This document shows positions 2,744 through 46,199 of a stretch of DNA of 51,551 bases, piece after piece. Location of the stretch: the NCBI GenBank assembly GCA_050872805.1, contig JBNMHN010000002.1:1-51551 (forward strand). Reading direction: 5' to 3'. Under the pieces are notes generated by a model, which worked only from the letters and a program-made list of their open reading frames with translations, ran no database searches and was not told where the DNA came from. A program made the translations under genes and the position numbers. How positions within the stretch are numbered: the stretch's first letter is position 1; the number at the start of each line of letters is the position of its first letter. This DNA comes from Clostridia bacterium. GTDB lineage: Bacteria; Bacillota; Clostridia; Christensenellales; UBA1242.

Positions 2744-3808
2744 TTAAATTGCAAAGATTGGTGCGAGATTATTATCAAATATTGGTCTAGATAATACTAT
2801 ATATCCATCCATCGAAGTGCTCAACCACGAGTGGTTGTCTGGACTATTTTTTACTGGTGAACGTTGCCACCACGAGCCAGTATTACTTGAATCAACTATA
2901 TATTTTATTCTTAATCTTCTGCTATTAGCAAAATCAGAATAATAATCGAAATGACCAAGAGGTGATTCTGTTACTCCAATTGAATGGTATGGTGAAAGAT
3001 ATCCTAACTCAATTTCAGCTGGCAAAAATAATATGTTATTGCTTGAAGATGCGACTGTCGTGGTTTTTCCACCTATTCCACTTAAAACTTTAACTTGTGA
3101 CATAGCTGCAACCATATCATCGGGCAAATCTGCAAGAATTGTTGGCATTATTTCCTTTCTCATTTTGGAATTTTCCCAACCACCGTCATTAGTGTCTGTT
3201 GAATTCATTGACCACCCTGTTCTACCATTAAGATTATAACATTCAACGAATTCAAACACAGCTTTAGAACTACCGCTACCGTCTGAATATTCATATCGAC
3301 CATCTTGCATATCTACTAATCTTATTGTATAGGTTTTACCCGATTTAGAAGTTATCGATTTTGTATCGCCAACACTCCAATAATCAGCTGCTTTCCCTGC
3401 CAAAACTACTTTACGAATAGTATCCCAAGAATTGTCGTTGAGCACTTTAGATGGAGCGTGTTCAACTCCAGTTATAACTACCTTAAACTTCATATCCGAA
3501 GACGGCGCGGAAGCGAACACGAGCTTGACTTTATTGAGTTTTGTATAGACATCAACCATTACTAGTTCGTCCATTATCTCACCGAAAATCGATTGCACCA
3601 TAAGATAAACCGACACGTTCACATCTGCGCCAAACGGGTGTTCGATATCATAACTCGCGTGTTCTCCGTCACCTGTCACGTAATAAGCATAGGTTTTTGA
3701 ATATGCAGATATATCTGGTGCGCCATAAATAACGGAATATGGTATTTTAATGTCATCAGTGCTGTTTGTGCCAGTCCTAACCTTTGGTTTTACTATTCTT
3801 GTCGCCAT
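2744..3808 (-). CDS. fibre / receptor-binding protein candidate (354 aa)
   Basis: ORF within the fibre gene block; beta-rich C-terminal half with a WWQRSP-type motif; no catalytic motif seen. Confidence 0.55.
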   Translation of the reverse strand: MATRIVKPKVRTGTNSTDDIKIPYSVIYGAPDISAYSKTYAYYVTGDGEHASYDIEHPFGADVNVSVYLMVQSIFGEIMDELVMVDVYTKLNKVKLVFASAPSSDMKFKVVITGVEHAPSKVLNDNSWDTIRKVVLAGKAADYWSVGDTKSITSKSGKTYTIRLVDMQDGRYEYSDGSGSSKAVFEFVECYNLNGRTGWSMNSTDTNDGGWENSKMRKEIMPTILADLPDDMVAAMSQVKVLSGIGGKTTTVASSSNNILFLPAEIELGYLSPYHSIGVTESPLGHFDYYSDFANSRRLRIKYIVDSSNTGSWWQRSPVKNSPDNHSWLSTSMDGYIVLSRPIFDNNLAPIFAI

Positions 3809-17882: not shown

Positions 17883-19427
17883 TTAGTTTTGTCCGTCGTT
17901 TTTGTCGCCGTCCGAGCTATTGTCCTGTGTTGTACTTGATGTATTTGTATTTTGATTTTTACCTAAATATTCGTCGATTTCTTCTTTCGACTTAATGTTG
18001 TTTTCGTGAACTTCCGCTGGGTCTGTAACAGCGTTTGATGCAATAAGCGAATCCAAGTCGTTCATACCAGCGTTCTTAAACGTTGCATATGCCGTGCTTG
18101 CCGACAATGGGTCGTCACTCAACGAACGCACGAACTTGTTGCGAACATCAAACGGTGTCAAGTTACTCAACTTATCTTTACCGCTTGTTAGGTTGTGCGA
18201 GTATGAAATGCAAATACCAACGAACTCGGTTTCTGCCTTGTCCATTTTAGGTATAATCATTCCAGCATTATTTTCGAGGTCGCGGAATCCGTTTCTATAA
18301 ACTACAGCTTTACCAGTGTCGTGTCCACCACCACTTCTCTCTGCCCTGCTTGGTATGCCAGCAGTCGTTTCAATAAGTTGGTCAATATAGTCACAAAGTA
18401 CTTGGACGCCAGTCTGGTCGAGCGGGTTCTTCAAAATGTCTACTTTTGGCGGGTTTTTAGCGTCTTTTTGTGTCAACGCAAATACTCTGTCGCTTATAGC
18501 TGTCTTTTTATCTTCTTCGTTTTCAAAGTCGCAGTTAATGAGCAACAAAACATAGTCGACTATTTGTTGGACGTCATCAAGTCGGTTGCTGACAAGTTGG
18601 TTTTTGAACGTGAACAAGTCTTTGCAAATTTCCCAGTCGCCCTTGCGGAACGCATTTCTTTCGACTTCAACAAGCGGGATTCTGCCTATTGTGTTTGGTT
18701 CTGCGTCATACACTCTACCATTAATCTCGACTGGCAATAACTTAAAACCAGTTTGGCTCATTGAATCTTCAACAAGTCTATACTTATAGTATTTCGTCCA
18801 AACAGTGTATTCTTTGCCATCAAATTGGTTATCTTTGTCGTAATGATTGCCGATTATTACGCCAAGTACTTTTTCGCCTATAATAGAAGTATTGTATACG
18901 CAAAATGCGGACTGCGGGTTGATAAACTTGTTGTTAATTACGAACGGAACACCGCTGTATTCCAACTCCTCTTTGTTTGAGGGAAGCGAAAGTTTATAAC
19001 CGAGTCCACATACACTGGAAGAAAGCGTCGCCATAATAGTTGAGTCGTGGTTGCCTCTAAAATCGAGGAATTCGCTCAATATTTCCACTTCTTTTTGCTT
19101 GTTGCTTTCCTTATCTGTTTGTCTTGAAACGTACTTAATTGGCTCGCCAAAGCAATACGAATTAATGGTTCTTGTGACAGCCCAAGCGTCGTCAACAGTA
19201 AGTTTGTTGCTGATGTCGTTGCGTTGCTTTTTGTCTTTCGACCAATAAGATGAGTCATTGAAGAAAATTCTAAACAATTCGTCTTCGTCTTGCACGTTTT
19301 GTTGGTGCACTGGAAGCACGTCATTGAGAATCTGCATAACCGTTAGCGCGTCAACAGCAGCATTGCCAGTCAACTCTCGGTTCGTGCATATGATTTTTCT
19401 ACCACAATACTTTGTATCCAACGCCAA
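17883..19427 (-). CDS. portal protein (514 aa)
   Basis: Size, position next to the terminase genes, acidic C-terminal tail. Confidence 0.8.
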   Translation of the reverse strand: MALDTKYCGRKIICTNRELTGNAAVDALTVMQILNDVLPVHQQNVQDEDELFRIFFNDSSYWSKDKKQRNDISNKLTVDDAWAVTRTINSYCFGEPIKYVSRQTDKESNKQKEVEILSEFLDFRGNHDSTIMATLSSSVCGLGYKLSLPSNKEELEYSGVPFVINNKFINPQSAFCVYNTSIIGEKVLGVIIGNHYDKDNQFDGKEYTVWTKYYKYRLVEDSMSQTGFKLLPVEINGRVYDAEPNTIGRIPLVEVERNAFRKGDWEICKDLFTFKNQLVSNRLDDVQQIVDYVLLLINCDFENEEDKKTAISDRVFALTQKDAKNPPKVDILKNPLDQTGVQVLCDYIDQLIETTAGIPSRAERSGGGHDTGKAVVYRNGFRDLENNAGMIIPKMDKAETEFVGICISYSHNLTSGKDKLSNLTPFDVRNKFVRSLSDDPLSASTAYATFKNAGMNDLDSLIASNAVTDPAEVHENNIKSKEEIDEYLGKNQNTNTSSTTQDNSSDGDKNDGQN

Positions 19428-20095: not shown

Positions 20096-22030
20096 TCAAA
20101 AAGGAAGTTGTTTGTATGTCTTAAGTATATTTTTCGAGTTGACATTGAAAATGAAGTTCTCTGCCACACCACAAATTGAGTCGGGTGCGTCGTCGTGCGA
20201 ATTTTTAGACACGTCAGCGGAGTATTGCGTCATATTGTTCATAAAAACGCCCATTTGGGTTCTTCCAGCGAACCTGCGCTTTGACGGGAACACAATGTTT
20301 TCCTTAACTGTGCCAGCCATAAGCGCGATTCTTTGGGCTTTGTTGACAGTGTTATACTTTGTAACAACCTCACACCAACGGATGTCAAGTGCTTTGAGTT
20401 TCATTTTAATGACTTCTGCCAAGCTTCCATCTACGTTTTCTTCTATAATCAGTTTGACAATCTTGTTTTTGATAATCTTATTGATAATATCTCCATACAA
20501 GTCGATTGACGCTTTTTGCACAAAAATGCAGTCAGTAAGGTAGTAAAGCTCGTCTTTCTTGTTTTGGCGCAGTATTGGCATTGAGAAAAAGTCTTTTGCG
20601 CTTCGCCTTGTCGGGTCGATGTACGAAATAGACTGTTCGTTGAGGTCTTCGGTTGGCAATTCGTCGTATGTTTTCAAGAAGTCGTAGTCGAAAATGAGTC
20701 CCTCGGCTGGAATTGGCTTTTGCCTCCAAATACACGCATAACTGTACGGGTCGAGACCGTTTCGTTTTTGCACTAACGCTTCGGTACTAATAAACTCTGG
20801 GTATGCGCTTTCACCAAACTCGTTCTCGCAGTCGTTTATTATAACTATTGTTTTGTTGTCCGCACTAATATACGTATTCTTGAAGCGTGGGTCTGGGCGT
20901 GCGCCATTCATTGCCAGCCCGATTTCTTGGGCAAACACGTCGTTAGGGTTGAACATTGTGCCAGTAAGCAAAATGAGTTGGTCGTCTTGTTCTTCAAAAC
21001 GGTCTGAAAAGTCGCCCCTAAACAACTGAACAATGTCGTTATGCAGTTTAGAGTTCGTTGCTTCTTGTTGACCGCGAGATGGGTCGTCCATTGCCGCCAC
21101 GCAACAACGCACAGAGTTAATTGCAGAGTCTCTTGTCTTAAAAACAGTAGCCGTAGGCGTGTACTTGACACCATTTATAATCCATTCTTCATCTGATGAC
21201 TTGCTAAAAGGTCTATACATTCCTTTGATTATCAGTTGCCGATTCTCTGGATATATATCAATGATTCTCTTGTTCTCAATTAGGTTCTTCGTTTGCGCTG
21301 ATTGTGCAAAGATGTTGCCCTGTTCGTTGCCTACACGCAGGAATCCGCCTTTCTCATAGATAATCCACGCCAATTCAGAGTACATCTCGTTCATCGTGTT
21401 GACAAGATATGATTTTCCGCTCGATGGGAACGTGGAAAACACTATTTTTGAGGGCGTGAACTGGTAATTTTGGTCTGAAGTCGGCATTTTTAGCCCAAAA
21501 CGACCGAGTAAGCCTTGATTGAACCACCAAATTGCCGATTCGAGTATGCGTTTACGACTTGGGTATGCTTTTTTGGTCTTGTCGCGCTCCAAATATTGTA
21601 TGTTGTACTCAATAAAGTAGCGAGCCGCTATTGCCATTTGCTCCCAGCGCAGTACGTCGTATATATATGCCAAGTGGCTGTACCGTTTTATCGAACCGTC
21701 TTGTTGACGTTGTTCCGTGTTCTCGTCTTGCAAACCGCACCACTCTTTAACCCACGCAGAAGTCGCAAAATACTTGTAACAGTATTCGAGCATTTCCTCT
21801 ATTTTCCGCATTGTATGCGTGTAAGCATAGCAACTTGCCCGAAAATCGTTCAACTTGTACATTAAATTGACGAGCCTACACTCTGTCACCAAAGCATTAA
21901 ACTCGTCTTTTAGTGAATACTTCGCAAAGCTGTACGTCCGCAATGGGTTCTTCCCCGCAACCTTTTTGAAGTTATATTCTATTTCCTTGAGGTCGTCTCC
22001 CTCGTACTTGTGCTTGTCGTGCATATGCAA
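20096..22030 (-). CDS. terL: terminase large subunit (644 aa)
   Basis: Walker A-like FPSSGKS; Walker B-like VAAMDDPS; nuclease-type acidic motifs IDPTRRSAKD and NSHDDAPDSICG near the C-terminus. Confidence 0.85.
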   Translation of the reverse strand: MHMHDKHKYEGDDLKEIEYNFKKVAGKNPLRTYSFAKYSLKDEFNALVTECRLVNLMYKLNDFRASCYAYTHTMRKIEEMLEYCYKYFATSAWVKEWCGLQDENTEQRQQDGSIKRYSHLAYIYDVLRWEQMAIAARYFIEYNIQYLERDKTKKAYPSRKRILESAIWWFNQGLLGRFGLKMPTSDQNYQFTPSKIVFSTFPSSGKSYLVNTMNEMYSELAWIIYEKGGFLRVGNEQGNIFAQSAQTKNLIENKRIIDIYPENRQLIIKGMYRPFSKSSDEEWIINGVKYTPTATVFKTRDSAINSVRCCVAAMDDPSRGQQEATNSKLHNDIVQLFRGDFSDRFEEQDDQLILLTGTMFNPNDVFAQEIGLAMNGARPDPRFKNTYISADNKTIVIINDCENEFGESAYPEFISTEALVQKRNGLDPYSYACIWRQKPIPAEGLIFDYDFLKTYDELPTEDLNEQSISYIDPTRRSAKDFFSMPILRQNKKDELYYLTDCIFVQKASIDLYGDIINKIIKNKIVKLIIEENVDGSLAEVIKMKLKALDIRWCEVVTKYNTVNKAQRIALMAGTVKENIVFPSKRRFAGRTQMGVFMNNMTQYSADVSKNSHDDAPDSICGVAENFIFNVNSKNILKTYKQLPF

Positions 22031-39495: not shown

Positions 39496-40131
39496 ATGGG
39501 AAAAGTTTTGTTAGATACTGAAATATGGGATAGTCTTTCCGAATGTTCGGCTAATAGCAAGTATTTGTTCCTTTGGCTAAAAACGAACCCTATAAGCAAA
39601 AGTTTAATAGGAAACCATAAAATTCCAAGCAAGATAATAGAGTTTTATACTGGGCTATCGCATAACGATGTTAATAACTCTATTAATGAGTTGGTAGAAA
39701 AGGGCATAATATTTGTAGATAATAAAAATATACTTATTCTCGACTCGTATAAAGACTATACAACGTCAATAACATTTCAAACAAAATTAAAGGAAGAATT
39801 GTTGAATATAGACAGTGAAAAAATACGAAATATCGTATTGGAATGGCTAAAAATATTGCAAAAAAGACAAGCGAATAACATCACTAACAATAATACCGCT
39901 AAAAGACTATATTCTATGTTTGGCGGCAAGTGCGCTTATTGCGGAGTAGAGTTAAACACTGATAACTTCACAATAGACCACAAAAATCCAAGAATAAATG
40001 GCGGGGGAAACGAATTTGGCAATCTTTTCCCAAGTTGTAGACATTGTAATTCGCAAAAAAGCGGGCGCACAATTAACGAGTATCGTTTGGCGTTCTTCAA
40101 CAAAAAACATAAATTTTATTTCGAGGTATAA
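39496..40131 (+). CDS. HNH endonuclease domain protein (211 aa)
   Basis: CAYCG...DHKNPRINGGGNEFGNLFPSCRHCNSQK. Confidence 0.75.
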   Translation: MGKVLLDTEIWDSLSECSANSKYLFLWLKTNPISKSLIGNHKIPSKIIEFYTGLSHNDVNNSINELVEKGIIFVDNKNILILDSYKDYTTSITFQTKLKEELLNIDSEKIRNIVLEWLKILQKRQANNITNNNTAKRLYSMFGGKCAYCGVELNTDNFTIDHKNPRINGGGNEFGNLFPSCRHCNSQKSGRTINEYRLAFFNKKHKFYFEV

Positions 40132-40133
40132 TA

Positions 40134-40973
40134 ATGTCGGACGTAAAAGACACAAATTCATTTACAATACACGCTTGGATGGCAACAAAACTAAAACTCT
40201 CGGGCAACGAGTTGTTGTTGTATGCACTGATATTCACTTTTTCGCAAGACGGAAAGTCAGAGTTTTTCGGCAGTCGTTCTTACTTATCGGACTTTATAAA
40301 CGCCTCGAAAAGAACGGTTGACGGGGTTTTAACAAGTTTACAAGAAAAGGGGCTAATAAAAAAACGTGTTCAAGTTACTAACGGAGTGACCAACAACTTT
40401 TACTCGGTGTGTGATGAAGAAATTGCACAGGGGGTGCAAAAATTGCAGGGGGACGGTGAAGAAGTTGCACCCAAATATAAAGAAGAATATAAAGATAAAG
40501 AAAATTATAATAAAAGAAACGAAAACATAGTTCAACCCTCTTTTTTAGCAAACGACGAAAACCAAGTTCAAAACGAAAAGGTTGATTTAGAAACGGAAAC
40601 TCCGACTACTACGTCATCTTTAACAGCACCTAACGAACAACCAAGTTCACGACAAGTTGCTAATAAAGATGATGATAGCAGTGAGTACGATAAAATAATA
40701 AAATACTTTGAACAAACTTGGTTAATATACCCACGCAAAGAGGGAAAGGTACAAGCAAAAACTACATTCACGCACAAAGTATATACGAAAGACGAGGAAG
40801 TTAGTCGCTTAAACGCTTTGAAAATTTACAAAATATTGCAACGGCAAATCAAGGCGTGGGACAACGAAAATAATGGAGGTGGACGAAAAAACCAGTTCAT
40901 ACCGCATTTTAGTAGCTGGCTCAACGACAACTTTGAGGACGTTCCTAAAAAAGAGCGAGGTAAGATAAAATGA
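40134..40973 (+). CDS. winged-HTH replication organiser / initiator-like protein
   Basis: LSGNELLLYALIFTFSQ...SRSYLSDFINASKRTVDGVLTSLQEKGLIKK wHTH pattern; position upstream of the helicase module. Confidence 0.55.
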   Translation: MSDVKDTNSFTIHAWMATKLKLSGNELLLYALIFTFSQDGKSEFFGSRSYLSDFINASKRTVDGVLTSLQEKGLIKKRVQVTNGVTNNFYSVCDEEIAQGVQKLQGDGEEVAPKYKEEYKDKENYNKRNENIVQPSFLANDENQVQNEKVDLETETPTTTSSLTAPNEQPSSRQVANKDDDSSEYDKIIKYFEQTWLIYPRKEGKVQAKTTFTHKVYTKDEEVSRLNALKIYKILQRQIKAWDNENNGGGRKNQFIPHFSSWLNDNFEDVPKKERGKIK

Positions 40974-42040
40974 GCAACAATGTAGTGCGAGAGATAACAT
41001 ACTTGGGGCGCACAAAAAAGTTCACGAATGACTTTGACTTGCTAAGCGAAGACGAATACAACGAAATCGTTGCTAAATGGTATGAAAAAGCCGACCGAGA
41101 CACAGTGAACGAAGAAATATTGTTGTTTGACGAGGGCGGTATTAAGTTCGCGGAAATAACCGATTATTACTTCAGAGATGTTATGGACGACTCAATACGT
41201 ACTGGCGCAAAGTGGAGCATAAACGAGGTTATGTCGAGCCGAGAGTTGTTATCGTCAGTTGTAGGAAAAATAAGGCGCAACCCAAAATTTTTCACAAGCC
41301 CTACACTCGTTGAAAACATCGACACGTATTTTAGAGTCGGTAGCGATGGGACGGCAATTAAAGTGTGTCAATTCCCAACAAAAGTTGCCGACTATATTCT
41401 ATATGAATACAATGTAAACGGCAATTATTATGATTATAGTTGCGGTTGGGGTGCGAGGCTTGCTTGTGCACTGAAAAACCGAGTAAACTATTTTGGGACA
41501 GACCCAAACTATAAATTGGTTGAGTGCTTAAACAAGTTTACAAAAGATTACACCAAACTAATGAGAACGACAACTGGTGTCGAAATTAGGTGTCAAGGGA
41601 GCGAGGATTATGTGCCAGAGTGGGAAAACAAAATGGGGCTTGCTTTTTCAAGTCCACCATACTTTTGCCTCGAAGATTACCGAACGGGCAAGCAGTCGTA
41701 TATCGCTGGCAAAACCTCTTACGACAGCTGGCTGAAAAACTATTTAGAGCCGACAATACAAAACATATACAAATACTTGGTGCACGACGGTTATTTCGTA
41801 TGTAACATAAAGAATTTTGACAAGTACAAAATGGAAGATGATATGGTAAAACTTGCGTGCGACAATGGTTTTGTGTTATACAAAGTTGACAAATTAAAAC
41901 AAGGCAAGAGAGTGTCTGGATTTACGGGTGACACCGATGACATTATGCTTGACGTAAACGAAAATATCTATGTATTTATAAAGCAAGGCGCAACACCGAA
42001 ACAATGCCACCCAGTGCAACTTTCGCTGTTCGATTTGTGA
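40970..42040 (+). CDS. N6-adenine/N4-cytosine DNA methyltransferase
   Basis: SPPY catalytic motif (LAFSSPPYFCLEDY) and SAM-binding-like YDYSCGWGARL. Confidence 0.8.
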   Translation: MSNNVVREITYLGRTKKFTNDFDLLSEDEYNEIVAKWYEKADRDTVNEEILLFDEGGIKFAEITDYYFRDVMDDSIRTGAKWSINEVMSSRELLSSVVGKIRRNPKFFTSPTLVENIDTYFRVGSDGTAIKVCQFPTKVADYILYEYNVNGNYYDYSCGWGARLACALKNRVNYFGTDPNYKLVECLNKFTKDYTKLMRTTTGVEIRCQGSEDYVPEWENKMGLAFSSPPYFCLEDYRTGKQSYIAGKTSYDSWLKNYLEPTIQNIYKYLVHDGYFVCNIKNFDKYKMEDDMVKLACDNGFVLYKVDKLKQGKRVSGFTGDTDDIMLDVNENIYVFIKQGATPKQCHPVQLSLFDL

Positions 42041-42049
42041 GGAGGAAAA

Positions 42050-43163
42050 ATGATAAAATTATTGATTGGCGGTAGCCCGTGTACTTACTGGTCGTGCGCT
42101 CAAAAGCACAACCGAGAAACACAAGCCGAGGGTTTAGGCTGGGAATTGTTCAAAAACTACTTAATAGCAAAAGAAAAATTCAAACCAGACTTCTTCTTAT
42201 ACGAGAACAACAAATCTGCGTCGCAAGCAATAAAAGACCAAATAAAACAAGAATTGGGCGTGTGGGACGGCTCAATTTTAACAGAAGATAGCGGTGTGAG
42301 GTACATAGAAATTAATTCCGCGCTCGTTTCAGCACAAAATCGCCAACGCTTTTACGTGCATAATTGTGGCGAGGTACAACAGCCAATAGACAGGGGAATA
42401 CATATTAGCGATATATTAGAAAGCAATGTAGGAAAGCCTATAAATATATGCGTCAACGAAAAGTCAAGGACAATAAAGGCGCAATACCAACAAAGCAGCA
42501 TAGCGAATTTCGTAACAAATGGCGGTCACAATGCAACTGGTATAGCGCAACGAATACCAACATACGGGAATAAAGAAAAATCTCGTCCAGTAAAAGCAAG
42601 TTATGCAAACAAAGGAGCGGGACAAGGTTCGTTAAATACAGAGTGTTTCCCAGCAGGCACAGTAAAAGAGAAAAGCGACTATATTGTTGAGCCAAGCAGA
42701 GACAAAAGTGGGAGATGTGTACAGGGTTGTAAATGGACTTATTTACATAAGTGGGAAAGAGCACCCAATAGACCTCGAAGATGGAGATTACACAATACGC
42801 AAGTTGACAGTGAAAGAGTGCTGCCGTTTGCAGACAATGCCCGACGATTATATGAAGTCAGTTAGTGCAAGTCAAGGTTACAAAGGTATTGGAAACGGAT
42901 GGACGGCGGAAGTTATAATACACATTCTCAACTATGCGCTTAAAAACGTGCCAAAAGACGAGGAAATAGTTGTGCTGTCAATGTATGACGGAATAGGGAC
43001 TGGTCGATATTGTCTTGATAAAATGGGCTTTACAAACGTAAAATATTATGCTTACGAAATAGACAAGTATGCAATGACTGTTGCAAAAGATAATTACCCA
43101 GACATCATAGAGTGCGGTGACGCATTCCAAGTAAGAAATGAAGATTGGAGGTTATATGACTAA
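42050..43163 (+). pseudogene. circularly permuted DNA (cytosine-5) methyltransferase, frame broken by a 1-nt indel near 42704-42707
   Basis: Motif order IV (GGSPCTYWS), VI (FFLYENN), VIII (SAQNRQRFY), IX (RKLTVKECCRLQTMPDDY), X (GIGNGWT), then I (VLSMYDGIGTG) and II/III (YAYEIDKYA..GD). The two track ORFs overlap at 42684-42865. Confidence 0.75.
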
Positions 43164-43401
43164 AATTCACAACTTAAAAATAAGAGCAGAATATGCGTTA
43201 CCGAAACTTAACTGCGACAAAATGTTCGAGATTCGAAAGAATGATAGAAACTACGAAGTCGGCGACATCGTGATATACAATGTGATTGACGACGTTGAAC
43301 TTAACCGACAGTTCGTGTCGAAGTTCTACAAGATAACATATATAACAAACTACGCCCAGCAAGACGGCTATGTAGTGTTCGGAGAGAAAGAATTTATATA
43401 G
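43156..43401 (+). CDS. ASCH/DUF3850-like PUA-fold protein (81 aa)
   Basis: HNLKIRAEY...KMFEIRKNDRNYEVGDIVIYN pattern; ATG 43156 with a GGAGGT RBS. Confidence 0.6.
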   Translation: MTKIHNLKIRAEYALPKLNCDKMFEIRKNDRNYEVGDIVIYNVIDDVELNRQFVSKFYKITYITNYAQQDGYVVFGEKEFI

Positions 43402-43412
43402 TGAGGAATAAT

Positions 43413-43655
43413 ATGCCGAGAGATTATGATGACACAATAGATTCAATACAATATGGCGTGTTACACATAGGAAGCAATACTGCAAACTCAGATTTTAGAA
43501 TAACATCAGCAATAAAGCGCACATACTTAAACGATGAGTGCGAGGTGTGCGGTGAACCAATATATTATTCGCAATACCACATATGTAATAGGTGTCGTAT
43601 CGCAGCACAAAAATTCAAAGACTGTTTAACCGAGGAGGACGTAAGGAATGGCTAA
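43413..43655 (+). CDS. zinc-finger protein (80 aa)
   Basis: CEVCG...CNRC pairs; ATG 43413 preferred over GTG 43401. Confidence 0.55.
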   Translation: MPRDYDDTIDSIQYGVLHIGSNTANSDFRITSAIKRTYLNDECEVCGEPIYYSQYHICNRCRIAAQKFKDCLTEEDVRNG

Positions 43656-45615
43656 AGATTTTGGACAATACCTCGTGAACATTGCGGACGTTCCGTATGT
43701 GAGAGAAAGTACCGAGCGCGTGCTGACTGGATTCCCAGACCTTGATTTCTTCAATAAGGGGATTGAGGTTGGGTTGACTGAAATACTGGGGCAAACAAAC
43801 TGTGTTGACTGTGATACAGAATATTTTAACGGTAGCGAGTGGAAAAAGATAAGCGAATACACGTACGGCGAAAAAGTTTTGCAATTCACGCAAGACCAAA
43901 GAGCCGAGTTGGTAACACCGCTTGCATACCACAAAACGGCGTGCGATACGCTTACACTTATGCAAAACGGCAGAAAGTCAATAAATCAATGCTTATCGGA
44001 CAACCACAAGTTCATTTATAGAAGTAAAAAATCTGGTAAGATTGTGGATGTTAAGTTCGGAGACATAAAAAAGCGTATTCCAAGCACTGCCGAAGTAATA
44101 ACGGCGTTCAATTTTGACAGTTTTGGCGACTTTGAAATTGACGAGTGGCTTTTGCGACTGTTTATTGCCGTTTCGGCTGATGGACATTTCCCAAAGAACA
44201 ACAGCACTAACTATTGCCAAGTCAATTTGAAACACAAATACAAGAAAGACAGGCTCGAAATGTTGCTCGCAAAGTGTGGCATTGCTTATAGAAAAGTAAA
44301 AAACAACCCAAGAGACCAAGCGTTCGACACATACACTTTTTACCCGCCCGAAAAAATAAAAGAGTTCCCTAAAACGTGGTATAATATGACAAAACACTGT
44401 TTCGAGATTATATACGACGAGGTTTTTAAGTGGGACGGCGAAGAAAAAAGACAAAAGTTATACCGCACGATAATCAAGAACAATGCAGACTTCATACAGT
44501 TTGTATGTTCGGCTCTCGGCAATAGGACAAGCATACACACAGATACAAGGCTCGGTGGCAAGTTTAAGCACTACTGTTACGAGGTAAGAAGTTGCGGTGG
44601 AAACGACTGTTACATCGCTATGAAAGGTGCAAGACCTATTAGTTTTTTGGATTACAAAACGAAAGACGGTTTTATGTATTGCTTTACAGTTCCGAGCGGG
44701 ATGTTGGTGTTGCGCAGAGAAAACGCAATTAACATAACTGGAAATTGTGGAAAGAGTATATTAACATCGTCGTTGATAAGTCGTGCAATCGACCAGCACT
44801 ACAAGGTCGGCGTGTTCGCTGGCGAGCATAGTTTGAAAACCTACAAACAACTGCTGTACCAACAAAATGCGAAGAAAGGTGAGTTCGAGATAATTCCGTT
44901 CCGCGACGCAAACGGAAACGACACAAACATTGCGGACTGGTTCGTCAACGAAAAAGCCGAGGAACGAATCGCCAAGAAGTTCAACGACAACTTGTTCTTG
45001 TTCAATGTTGAAAAGGACGAGAGAGACATAGACACGCTTATCGGAACAATATTGTACGGTTACAAGGAACACGGCATACGCTTTTGGGTAATTGACAACC
45101 TAATGGAAATCGACAACAAGGCGTCAAACCAATGGCAAGAGCAAACGGGTATCGGCAACAAACTACGCAATGTATTCGTGCAAAATGGGCTGTTCGGAGT
45201 TTTGGTAATGCACACCAACAAGAGCGATGTTTTGCGAGTGAATATTCGTGACGCTTTTGGCTCGTCGAACATCACGAACAAAGGCTACCGAATTTGGGTA
45301 TTGTACCGCAAGGACTATATGTTCGCAAAGCAAGGGCAAGAGCGAGAGCTTGACCGCATAAAACGCGATTTGGCAGCGAATGGCTTTGACTACGACCAAT
45401 GTGACGGATTCATTGATACAATTAAAACAAAGGGCAATAGAAACGGAATAATGGGCATTGTATACGACGCCGAAACAAAAACATACAAGCAAGCCCCGAA
45501 AATAAGCCAAACCGAGGCTGACAAAATATATAAAAGAACAGTAAAGCAAGAATCAGTTGACAATATATTCGACGATATGGAGTATGTTGACGAACAAGAT
45601 GATTTACCATTTTAG
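43648..45615 (+). CDS. DnaB/RecA-fold replicative helicase-like ATPase interrupted by an intein
   Basis: Exteins join to GQTN|CGKS (Walker A GxxxxGKS); VIDNLMEID Walker B-like; VLVMHTNK; C-terminal DEQDDLPF. Confidence 0.8.
   Translation: MAKDFGQYLVNIADVPYVRESTERVLTGFPDLDFFNKGIEVGLTEILGQTNCVDCDTEYFNGSEWKKISEYTYGEKVLQFTQDQRAELVTPLAYHKTACDTLTLMQNGRKSINQCLSDNHKFIYRSKKSGKIVDVKFGDIKKRIPSTAEVITAFNFDSFGDFEIDEWLLRLFIAVSADGHFPKNNSTNYCQVNLKHKYKKDRLEMLLAKCGIAYRKVKNNPRDQAFDTYTFYPPEKIKEFPKTWYNMTKHCFEIIYDEVFKWDGEEKRQKLYRTIIKNNADFIQFVCSALGNRTSIHTDTRLGGKFKHYCYEVRSCGGNDCYIAMKGARPISFLDYKTKDGFMYCFTVPSGMLVLRRENAINITGNCGKSILTSSLISRAIDQHYKVGVFAGEHSLKTYKQLLYQQNAKKGEFEIIPFRDANGNDTNIADWFVNEKAEERIAKKFNDNLFLFNVEKDERDIDTLIGTILYGYKEHGIRFWVIDNLMEIDNKASNQWQEQTGIGNKLRNVFVQNGLFGVLVMHTNKSDVLRVNIRDAFGSSNITNKGYRIWVLYRKDYMFAKQGQERELDRIKRDLAANGFDYDQCDGFIDTIKTKGNRNGIMGIVYDAETKTYKQAPKISQTEADKIYKRTVKQESVDNIFDDMEYVDEQDDLPF
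43801..44745 (+). mobile_element. 315-aa intein with LAGLIDADG homing endonuclease domain inserted in the helicase P-loop
   Basis: N-terminal Cys (CVDCD); block B LSDNHKF; LAGLIDADG-like LLRLFIAVSADGHF and FIQFVCSALGNRTSI; C-terminal ...NITGN followed by extein +1 Cys. Confidence 0.8.
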
Positions 45616-45623
45616 GAGCGATA

Positions 45624-46199
45624 ATGGAAGAAATTTGGAAAGACATACCTGATTATGAGGGAATTTATCAAGCGAGCAATTTGGGAAGAATAAGAACCGC
45701 CCCAAACAAAACTACTTATACCGAATTGCGAGGCGTAAGGCATTGGAAGATGCGAATAATGAAAGGGAAAGGCAATAATAAGCACACTGGCGCAAGAGTT
45801 GGTTTGTGGAAAAACGGCAAATGCAAAGATTGGCTTGTTGCGAGACTCGTGGCAATTACATTTTTAGGTAAGCCGAGTCCAGATAAAAACACAGTAAACC
45901 ATATTAACGGGAACAGGCTCGATAATAGAATTGAAAATCTTGAATGGCTAAGTCTTGCAGATAATATACGGCACGCTGTTGATACAAACCTGTGTTCGCA
46001 AAACAAAATAATAACGCTAATTTCTGCTGAAGAAAAGAAAACATTTCGTTCGTTTTGCACTGCATCAAAATTTTTAGGGAAATGCAATGGTTATGTGTCT
46101 AACACAATAAAAGCAAAAAGAAAATTGGTTGGTAGCGATGGAAAAATATGGGACTATATTATAGTCGGAAATAAAAAGAAAAATAAACAGGAGGAATAA
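45624..46199 (+). CDS. free-standing HNH homing endonuclease (NUMOD4-like N-terminus plus HNH_3-like core)
   Basis: WKDIPDYEGIYQASNLGRIRT and VNHINGNRLDNRIENLEWLSLADN. Confidence 0.8.
   Translation: MEEIWKDIPDYEGIYQASNLGRIRTAPNKTTYTELRGVRHWKMRIMKGKGNNKHTGARVGLWKNGKCKDWLVARLVAITFLGKPSPDKNTVNHINGNRLDNRIENLEWLSLADNIRHAVDTNLCSQNKIITLISAEEKKTFRSFCTASKFLGKCNGYVSNTIKAKRKLVGSDGKIWDYIIVGNKKKNKQEE

Follow-up and report, generated by a model that had tools for sequence, protein, structure and literature searches.

A phage gene for a circularly permuted cytosine-5 DNA methyltransferase, cut between motifs III and IV and split by a frameshift

Results

A 51,551-nucleotide stretch from the assembly of a Clostridia bacterium (GCA_050872805.1, contig JBNMHN010000002.1, positions 1–51,551; hereafter the window) encodes, at positions 42050–43163 of its plus strand, a DNA methyltransferase of the cytosine-5 type (C5-MTase) whose repaired protein matches the Pfam family PF00145. 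The gene is divided between two overlapping plus-strand open reading frames (ORFs), ORF1 (42050–42865, 271 residues) and ORF2 (42684–43163, 159 residues, in the +1 frame), a frameshift split that an earlier reading of the DNA letters alone (the sequence-only reading) had recognized and that is borne out by the intact relatives, which use a single frame. A Shine-Dalgarno sequence, AGGAGG (42040–42045), lies 4 nucleotides before the ATG at 42050, and the gene cannot extend further upstream because of an in-frame TGA at 42038–42040. The native part of ORF1, its N-terminal ~220 residues, comprises motifs IV–VIII and most of the variable region; from 42713 it continues as 51 out-of-frame residues and then stops. 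ORF2, which opens at a TTG, contains the last part of the variable region, followed by motifs IX and X, a linker and motifs I–III, and ends with the TAA at 43161–43163. Both ORFs separately, as well as the repaired read-through protein, exceed the PF00145 gathering score of 22: ORF1 with 30.5 bits (residues 2–104 on profile positions 62–159, E=3.3e-7), ORF2 with 51.4 bits over two stretches (E=1.5e-13) and the repaired protein with 81.3 bits (residues 2–294 on profile positions 62–320 of 324, E=1.1e-22).

The order of the conserved motifs along the chain is IV, VI, VIII, variable region, IX, X, a five-residue linker, I, II and III. Motif IV (LLIGGSPCTYWS, 42059–42094) lies at the extreme N-terminus and carries the catalytic Cys11. 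It is followed by motif VI (FFLYENN, 42191–42211, with Glu52), motif VIII (SAQNRQRFY, 42329–42355, with Arg98 and Arg100, which are invariant in alignment A3) and the variable region, or target-recognition domain (TRD; 42356–42794), which is replaced or duplicated among relatives. Motif IX (IRKLTVKECCRLQTMPDDY, 42795–42851) and motif X (GIGNGWTAEVI, 42885–42917) come next, and then the linker PKDEE (42951–42965), which, on the basis of the canonical proteins of phages MT835730 and CRP-9, joins the ancestral C-terminus (...ALKNV) to the ancestral N-terminus (IVVLSMYDG...). The chain ends with motif I (VVLSMYDGIGTGRYCL, 42969–43016), the S-adenosylmethionine (SAM)-binding loop, motif II (YAYEIDKYA, 43047–43073, with Glu336) and motif III (ECGDAFQV, 43110–43133, with Asp357), nine residues from the end of the protein. 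The sequence-only reading had proposed this rotated order, and all the motif strings it named are in place; a profile search gave neither the normal I-to-X order nor two independent gene fragments.

Alignments to enzymes of known structure agree. In phmmer searches of PDB sequences, query residues 4–58 matched M.HhaI 74–125 (motifs IV–VI), residues 249–300 matched M.HhaI 271–318 (IX–X) and residues 309–362 matched M.HhaI 15–65 (I–III), while residues 302–361 matched the N-terminus of the DNMT3A/3B catalytic domain. The catalytic residues (SPC 9–11, YENN 51–54 and QNRQR 96–100) and the SAM-binding residues (DGIGTG 313–318 in motif I, E336 in II, D357 in III and GNG 281–283 in X) are all present. 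The family alignments A3 and A4 show no variation at the glycines of motif I, the Glu of motif II and the GNG of motif X, nor at the catalytic Cys, the Glu of ENN and the arginines of QxRxR. The Asp of motif III does not vary in A3 and is conserved to at least 90% in A4. What this copy lacks, as a member of the PF00145 superfamily, is an uninterrupted reading frame, owing to an extra G at 42710–42712; its orthologues are intact.

Relatives with the canonical order were found in GenBank phage records, namely MT835730 (38% identical) and Roseobacter phage CRP-9 (32–53% identical over the aligned segments), and they allow the cut to be seen directly. The MT835730 protein reads MRVLSLFDGISCG (opening MRVLSLFDGIS)...EIDKYAI...HHGNVFDGDFRKFKGYD-LLLGGSPCTYWS...IGNGWTVDVIAHILGGLKNV and stops after HILGGLKNV. 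The window protein reads MIK-LLIGGSPCTYWS...GIGNGWTAEVIIHILNYALKNV-PKDEE-IVVLSMYDGIGTG...YEIDKYAM...ECGDAFQVRNEDWRLYD before its stop codon. Mapped onto MT835730, the cut falls between GNVFDGDFRKFKGYD and LLLGGSPCTYWS, that is, in the loop between the GD of motif III and the GGSPC of motif IV, which is exactly where the sequence-only reading had placed it, with X joined to I. No block is lost and none is duplicated: with the III/IV loop as the new opening of the chain, about five residues link the ancestral termini. This comparison confirms the predicted enzyme as a clean circular permutation of a C5-MTase, cut between motifs III and IV.

The permuted order is widely shared. It is present in 118 of the 120 best homologues among 5.8 billion proteins (55–97% identical), and in all 118 motif IV begins within residues 1–12, mostly 1–3, and the chain ends a few residues past motif III. 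The order recurs at about 80 of 85 loci from phages and viral contigs, with the gene in one unbroken ORF at all but six of these. The sequence-only reading had suggested a survey of relatives, and by these counts the permutation is not confined to this gene. A 151-residue junction query (variable-region end, IX, X, I, II and III), searched against 1.84 billion cluster representatives at 50% identity, matched 170 representatives at E<=1e-30 and 2059 at E<=1e-10. The architecture is permuted in 141 of the 150 best of these, with IX–X followed directly by I–III (median gap 7 residues) and I–III ending a median of 9 residues from the C-terminus. The IV–VIII block is undetectable in 50 of these 141, which are probably partial sequences; the other nine of the 150 comprise two tandem double enzymes, two with IX–X and then a full I–X unit, and five that are canonical or fragmentary.

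Among GTDB contigs, taken as one genome per species, 136 stretches encode a relative, and nearly all of the 80 listed come from gut Clostridia (Oscillospiraceae, Lachnospiraceae, Ruminococcus). Isolates with a permuted relative include Butyricicoccus pullicaecorum DSM 23266, Lachnospira eligens BIOML-A1 and Robinsoniella peoriensis CCUG 48729. The whole junction occurs in just three of 50,697 GenBank phage records (MT836645, MT835543 and Phage nd4, OR777945). As judged from these comparisons of sequence, the permutation marks out a phage and prophage family that is large, conserved and for the most part intact. Many permuted members (P0059, P0061, P0074, P0093 and others; 328–574 residues) have two or three copies of the variable region between VIII and IX. 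Some phage matches were suspected of being canonical forms split over two genes; they were rejected as such, being single genes with an overlapping neighbour.

Modelling of the fold, a check named in the sequence-only reading, gave a confident result for a relative and a poor one for the window protein. For the repaired protein of the window, AlphaFold2 with an alignment of 44 sequences reached a predicted local distance difference test score (pLDDT) of just 56, and the first Foldseek match of that model, DRM2 with a template-modelling (TM) score of ~0.27, carries little weight. The compact relative P0285 (300 residues, 93% identical to a Lachnospira eligens protein), run with a 79-sequence alignment, was modelled with a pLDDT of 93.3 and a predicted TM score (pTM) of 0.91. 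The order of elements in its model is beta4, helix, beta5, helix, beta6, beta7, variable region, IX/X helices, beta1, helix, beta2, helix, beta3; as modelled, P0285 is a complete seven-stranded class I methyltransferase fold that starts from a different point. Foldseek gave 103 PDB matches for P0285 at E<=0.001 (best 3e-11), and all 50 of those listed are C5-MTases (DNMT3A/B/C, NtDRM/DRM2 and M.HhaI). Their TM scores, normalized by query length, are 0.5–0.58, as expected because a sequential aligner meets a permuted chain. A search of BFVD returned no full-length topological twin, the best TM score, normalized in the same way, being 0.61.

To place the permutation event, the three core blocks were re-set in canonical order for proteins below 80% identity, and an unrooted neighbour-joining tree was built from 204 columns with our own numpy implementation. 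The 81 permuted and 16 canonical proteins are separated by a single split, recovered in 168 of 200 bootstraps, which favours one permutation event. The sequence-only reading had supposed a tandem duplication followed by trimming of the ends, and this route is supported by natural tandem and half-trimmed forms within the same subfamily. P0197 (618 residues) and P0236 (962 residues) are in-frame tandem enzymes of the form I–X, I–X, whose halves are 46–49% identical to each other, and P0261 (556 residues) and P0269 (459 residues) have an N-terminal IX–X block followed by a complete I–X unit. We regard these proteins as candidate fossils of the duplication-and-trimming route. In such a scenario two tandem methyltransferase genes would have fused in frame, after which motifs I–III would have been lost from the first and IV–X from the second, and this fusion and trimming probably happened once. 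On some large viral contigs (100–154 kb) the permuted gene is immediately preceded by a canonical C5-MTase gene (L044:1861–4299 and L061:2009–3894).

The frameshift is a property of this copy. In a DNA alignment with four intact relatives (L006, L086, L087 and L088; 95–97% identical), the window has GGG at 42710–42712, one G too many, where all four have GG; at the protein level intact orthologues that are 96–97% identical exist. With one G removed the native reading is ...RDKSGDVYRVVNG... (EPSRDKSGDVYRVVNG) and not ...DKVGDV.... The sequence-only reading had located the lesion in the A4 run at 42704–42707; deleting an A there does restore the ORF, but not the ancestral sequence, and we discarded that repair since the alignment favours the G run. 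As read from the DNA, the extra G changes the frame close to where the variable region ends and cuts the catalytic half off from motifs IX, X and I–III; ORF1 alone is without the whole SAM-binding half. Against the nearest relative there are 2 synonymous and 5 non-synonymous substitutions before the shift and 3 and 1 after it, so few that the counts say little.

The same extra G is found in Logan contigs of three sequencing runs of one study (X1–X3, one of them SRR30769985; 9–16 kb, word depth 13–17), which match the window exactly over 42400–43000, and it is absent in runs X4, X5 and X8, from three other studies. The exact 271-residue ORF1 product occurs on only four contigs, the 51,551-base record and the three Logan contigs. 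In two pig-gut runs, X6 and X7, the contigs end and restart at 42696–42724, leaving a gap of about k-1 bases like that of an unresolved variant bubble; these breaks could come from a GG/GGG polymorphism, from an A/T single-nucleotide polymorphism (SNP) at 42706, or from low depth (2.9–6.8x). Elsewhere in the family the permuted gene is broken in about 6 of 85 related loci, by homopolymer indels in L010 (an A6 run, ~3060–3075), L063 (G8, ~3570–3580) and L071 (T5, ~3165–3175) and by an in-frame stop in L022 (L022:2899), the remaining two being L004 and L037. Their lesions may be either assembly errors or real decay.

The simplest reading of these data is a recent, lineage-specific inactivating insertion, and on the sequence the enzyme has most likely been inactivated by it. 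Of the outcomes that the sequence-only reading had left side by side (decay, artefact or slippage), recent inactivation fits best. The explanation that competes with it most seriously, though we consider it unlikely, is that the two polypeptides complement each other, ORF1 with IV–VIII and the recognition region and ORF2 with IX, X and I–III together forming an active enzyme. C5-MTases bisected near the variable region, naturally or artificially, can complement, the cp62 permutant of M.MpeI is partially active as fragments when split at residue 280 (PMC5944983), and the phage with the frameshift allele persists at 13–17x depth in three samples. Translation of ORF2 is the difficulty: it has no ATG, and none of its candidate starts, TTG or GTG codons at 42684, 42687, 42708 and 42717, is preceded by a good Shine-Dalgarno sequence. 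Nor could it be coupled to ORF1 by a stop-start signal, the ORF1 stop lying 155 nucleotides downstream of the ORF2 opening. Moreover, the split falls distally in the variable region, at its very end, and leaves 51 nonsense residues on ORF1, no relative has this arrangement, and the allele is confined to the four contigs; the sequence itself offers no sign of complementation.

Less probable still is that sequencing or assembly introduced the extra G as an artefact into a gene that is really intact. Other family members in metagenome assemblies do carry homopolymer indels (the A6, G8 and T5 runs of L010, L063 and L071), and the three supporting runs share one study whose platform is not on record. 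However, the three runs were assembled independently and agree exactly with the window across the site, and a GG-to-GGG majority error in three libraries is improbable for short-read data, which makes a random error unlikely.

We give very little credence to the idea that the frame change is in use, with programmed +1 frameshifting or reversible slippage (phase variation) regulating expression. The lesion does lie within a short G run, and the contig breaks in X6 and X7 are what a polymorphic site would produce in a de Bruijn graph. Yet a run of 2–3 nucleotides is far shorter than tracts known for a useful rate of slippage, the sequence shows no evident +1 frameshift signal, all relatives, including those 95–97% identical, encode a single-frame protein, and the breaks are explained equally well by the SNP or the low depth. 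That there is no true permutation at all, the region being made up of neighbouring pieces of two genes or of duplicated DNA that was wrongly joined, as the upstream canonical genes of L044 and L061 might suggest, is hardly conceivable and was rejected on the X1–X3 contigs, the viral loci and the homologue architecture. The X-to-I junction is internal to a single ORF in hundreds of independent contigs as well as in the genomes of isolates, and an in-frame stop and a ribosome-binding site ahead of motif IV leave the N-terminus no other place.

At ~51.5 kb the window represents essentially an entire phage genome, with a portal gene (17883–19427) and a terminase gene (20096–22030) on the minus strand. 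The methyltransferase gene is located in the replication module, between a replication initiator gene (40134–40973) and a plus-strand primase/helicase gene (43648–45615). The 655-residue product of the latter matches a 'PhoH-like' PHROG over residues 48–377 and a primase/helicase PHROG over 354–619, while at E<=0.001 it has no match in Pfam. The module has HNH/NUMOD4 homing-endonuclease genes on both sides (39496–40131 and 45624–46199). The closest strains of the phage come from pig-gut metagenomes; a megablast search of 41000–44000 against the 50,697 GenBank phages gave no match, and the informative searches were those at the protein level.

Immediately upstream of the C5-MTase gene, a 356-residue ORF (40970–42040, plus strand) resembles a second methyltransferase gene, with a motif I-like DYSCGWG followed by FSSPPYF (motif IV). 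It scores 22.9 bits against Pfam N6_N4_Mtase (cut-off 26.7) and matches PADLOC 'mad2' at E=8e-8, with no match in PHROGs or NCBIfam, and it is kept beside the C5 gene in the close relatives L086–L088. Downstream lies a DUF3850 gene (43156–43401, plus strand; PF12961, E=1.9e-15), whose probable start, the ATG at 43156 behind a GGAGG, forms an ATGA-type overlap with the methyltransferase stop. This neighbour is also found in L088 and L171, and a functional link between DUF3850 and cytosine methylation is possible.

Discussion

We think it likely that the window gene is a phage orphan C5-MTase of a III/IV-permuted family, likely inactivated by the extra G. In intact members the chain opens with the catalytic half, namely beta4 with the Pro-Cys nucleophile, the ENN glutamate and the QxRxR arginines, continues with the target-recognition region and motifs IX and X, and closes, by way of a short linker, with the SAM-binding half, motifs I–III forming the end of the protein. 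About five residues are enough to join X and I because these motifs are neighbours in the canonical fold, and with the neighbours joined the SAM pocket would therefore be built from one continuous segment. The chemistry would be that of an ordinary C5-MTase, in which the Cys attacks C6 of the flipped cytosine and a methyl group is then transferred from SAM, and the biological role would presumably be to shield phage DNA from host restriction.

Several points weigh against this interpretation or narrow it. The inactivity of the split gene is deduced from missing start signals, and runs X1–X3 belong to one study and are seen as assembled contigs only, in which minority intact alleles would be invisible. 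For all family members, formation of 5-methylcytosine (5mC) is a prediction. The confident model is that of a relative ~53% identical to the window protein, which was itself modelled poorly. The single origin rests on a tree that is unrooted, was made by neighbour joining from 204 columns and includes 16 non-redundant canonical sequences. Finally, we found no description of a III/IV-permuted C5-MTase in open-access full texts, REBASE itself being outside the scope of that search, and 'undescribed' is thus a provisional term limited to the open-access literature searched.

The rotated order also affects annotation. The NCBIfam model TIGR00675 ('dcm'), which NCBI uses for naming, has a cut-off of 100.65 bits; the repaired window protein scores 80.5, P0285 52.5 and P0107 76, all below it, whereas the canonical P0403 passes with 101.7. 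The scores of the permuted proteins fall short because of the rotated order, which limits the colinear alignment to profile positions 63–326, and this fits the labels in the databases: HAX83229.1 and the Phage nd4 coding sequence (OR777945 32378–34054) are each a 'hypothetical protein', while canonical relatives are called 'DNA cytosine methyltransferase'. The methylation capacity of gut phages may thus be under-counted.

In our estimate the balance tips slightly towards the III/IV-permuted C5-MTases being an unrecognized natural class, with a beta-class-like order, monophyletic, abundant in phages and prophages of gut Clostridia, often multi-module and with intermediates still extant. If true, such a class would overturn the published generalization that confines the cut of natural permuted C5-MTases to the variable region, within a group of enzymes so far regarded as topologically almost uniform. 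Living tandem-fusion intermediates would make the permutation-by-duplication pathway directly testable on natural sequences, and, with the SAM-binding and catalytic halves at opposite ends, these proteins may suit split or targeted methyltransferase scaffolds. The permutation is the interesting part of the locus; the frameshift would be an ordinary lineage-specific loss.

Among known systems, M.AquI alpha/beta and M.EcoHK31I consist of two polypeptides whose frames differ and which part near the variable region, and resemble only the frameshifted state seen here. Those enzymes are split in a conserved way, with translation signals of their own, whereas the split in the window is known from four contigs, with the Logan support from one study, and is without start signals. 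The multispecific C5-MTases of Bacillus phages (M.SPRI, M.Phi3TI) are, like the III/IV-permuted enzymes, phage-encoded orphans, and the multiple variable-region modules of the latter (328–574 residues) recall their tandem recognition domains. The Bacillus phage enzymes have the canonical I–X order, however, and the likeness to the permuted family lies in the module copies alone.

The full order of the beta-class amino-methyltransferases is IV–VIII, recognition domain, X and I–III. The block order of enzymes such as M.PvuII, M.RsrI and CcrM (IV-TRD-I; PMC7544214) is thus that of the window gene. The beta-class enzymes, which have to dimerize, use (D/S)PPY on exocyclic amino groups, however, whereas the family described here uses a Pro-Cys (GGSPC) on C5, and there is no detectable sequence kinship between them beyond the common fold. 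The window gene, which has no (D/S)PPY, is not a beta-class member.

The plant DRM enzymes reportedly carry motifs VI–X ahead of I–V (Cao et al. 2000; Zhong et al. 2014). DRM1 and DRM2 (PDB 4ONJ, 7L4C and others) share with the III/IV-permuted family a contiguous X-to-I junction: query residues 271–359 align colinearly with DRM2 chain residues 195–281 across X, I, II and III (phmmer, PDB sequences), and DRM and DNMT3 were the top structural matches in Foldseek. This junction is the only shared feature. The cut in DRM (VI–X, I–V; PMC3227630) lies between V and VI, whereas in the window protein IV and VI are adjacent at the N-terminus and the cut lies between III and IV; the DRM proteins are, moreover, eukaryotic, have UBA domains and function in RNA-directed methylation as a dimer. 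The two permutations probably arose independently.

The natural permuted C5-MTases listed so far are M.BssHII, M.Alw26I, M2.Eco31I, M.Esp3I and M2.BsaI, together with 22 REBASE entries (PMC5944983). This group has been named 'Type H' (PMC5944983) and 'class F' (bioRxiv 10.1101/2023.12.13.571470), and in the 2025 topology scheme for prokaryotic methyltransferases the 5mC enzymes are either canonical class C or M2.Eco31I-like class F (bioRxiv 10.1101/2023.12.13.571470). The REBASE scan on which the published generalization is based could not have detected the III/IV-permuted family because its motif I pattern requires a Phe where the family has a Tyr (SMYDGIG or SMYDGMS). As in the M.BssHII type, the C5-MTase motifs are rotated, X is joined to I, and an origin by duplication and trimming is presumed. 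As the sequence-only reading had held, however, the order itself is different: in the M.BssHII type the new termini lie in the variable region, so that IX–X precede I–VIII, whereas the window protein begins at motif IV, ends with I–III and has its termini in the III/IV loop. The M.BssHII-type enzymes, furthermore, belong to Type IIS restriction-modification systems, whereas members of the family described here are phage or prophage orphans.

The closest parallel to the cut itself comes from the laboratory. C5-MTases accept new termini within their N-terminal SAM-binding region, as was shown with engineered permutants of M.MpeI and M.SssI (Albert et al. 2018, PMC5944983) and of M.HaeIII (Peisajovich et al. 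2006, as cited in PMC5944983). Tandem duplicates served as active intermediates in laboratory permutation, and the most active engineered class had its new N-terminus between motifs II and III (PMC5944983). According to Albert et al. 2018, the pattern of these permutants occurred in no natural enzyme (PMC5944983). A natural III/IV cut would mean that evolution has gone further into the permutation space than one would have supposed from the work of Albert et al. and Peisajovich et al.: the engineered proteins are laboratory constructs, the most active class being opened at II/III, whereas in the phage family the chain has been opened by nature one loop further on, between III and IV.

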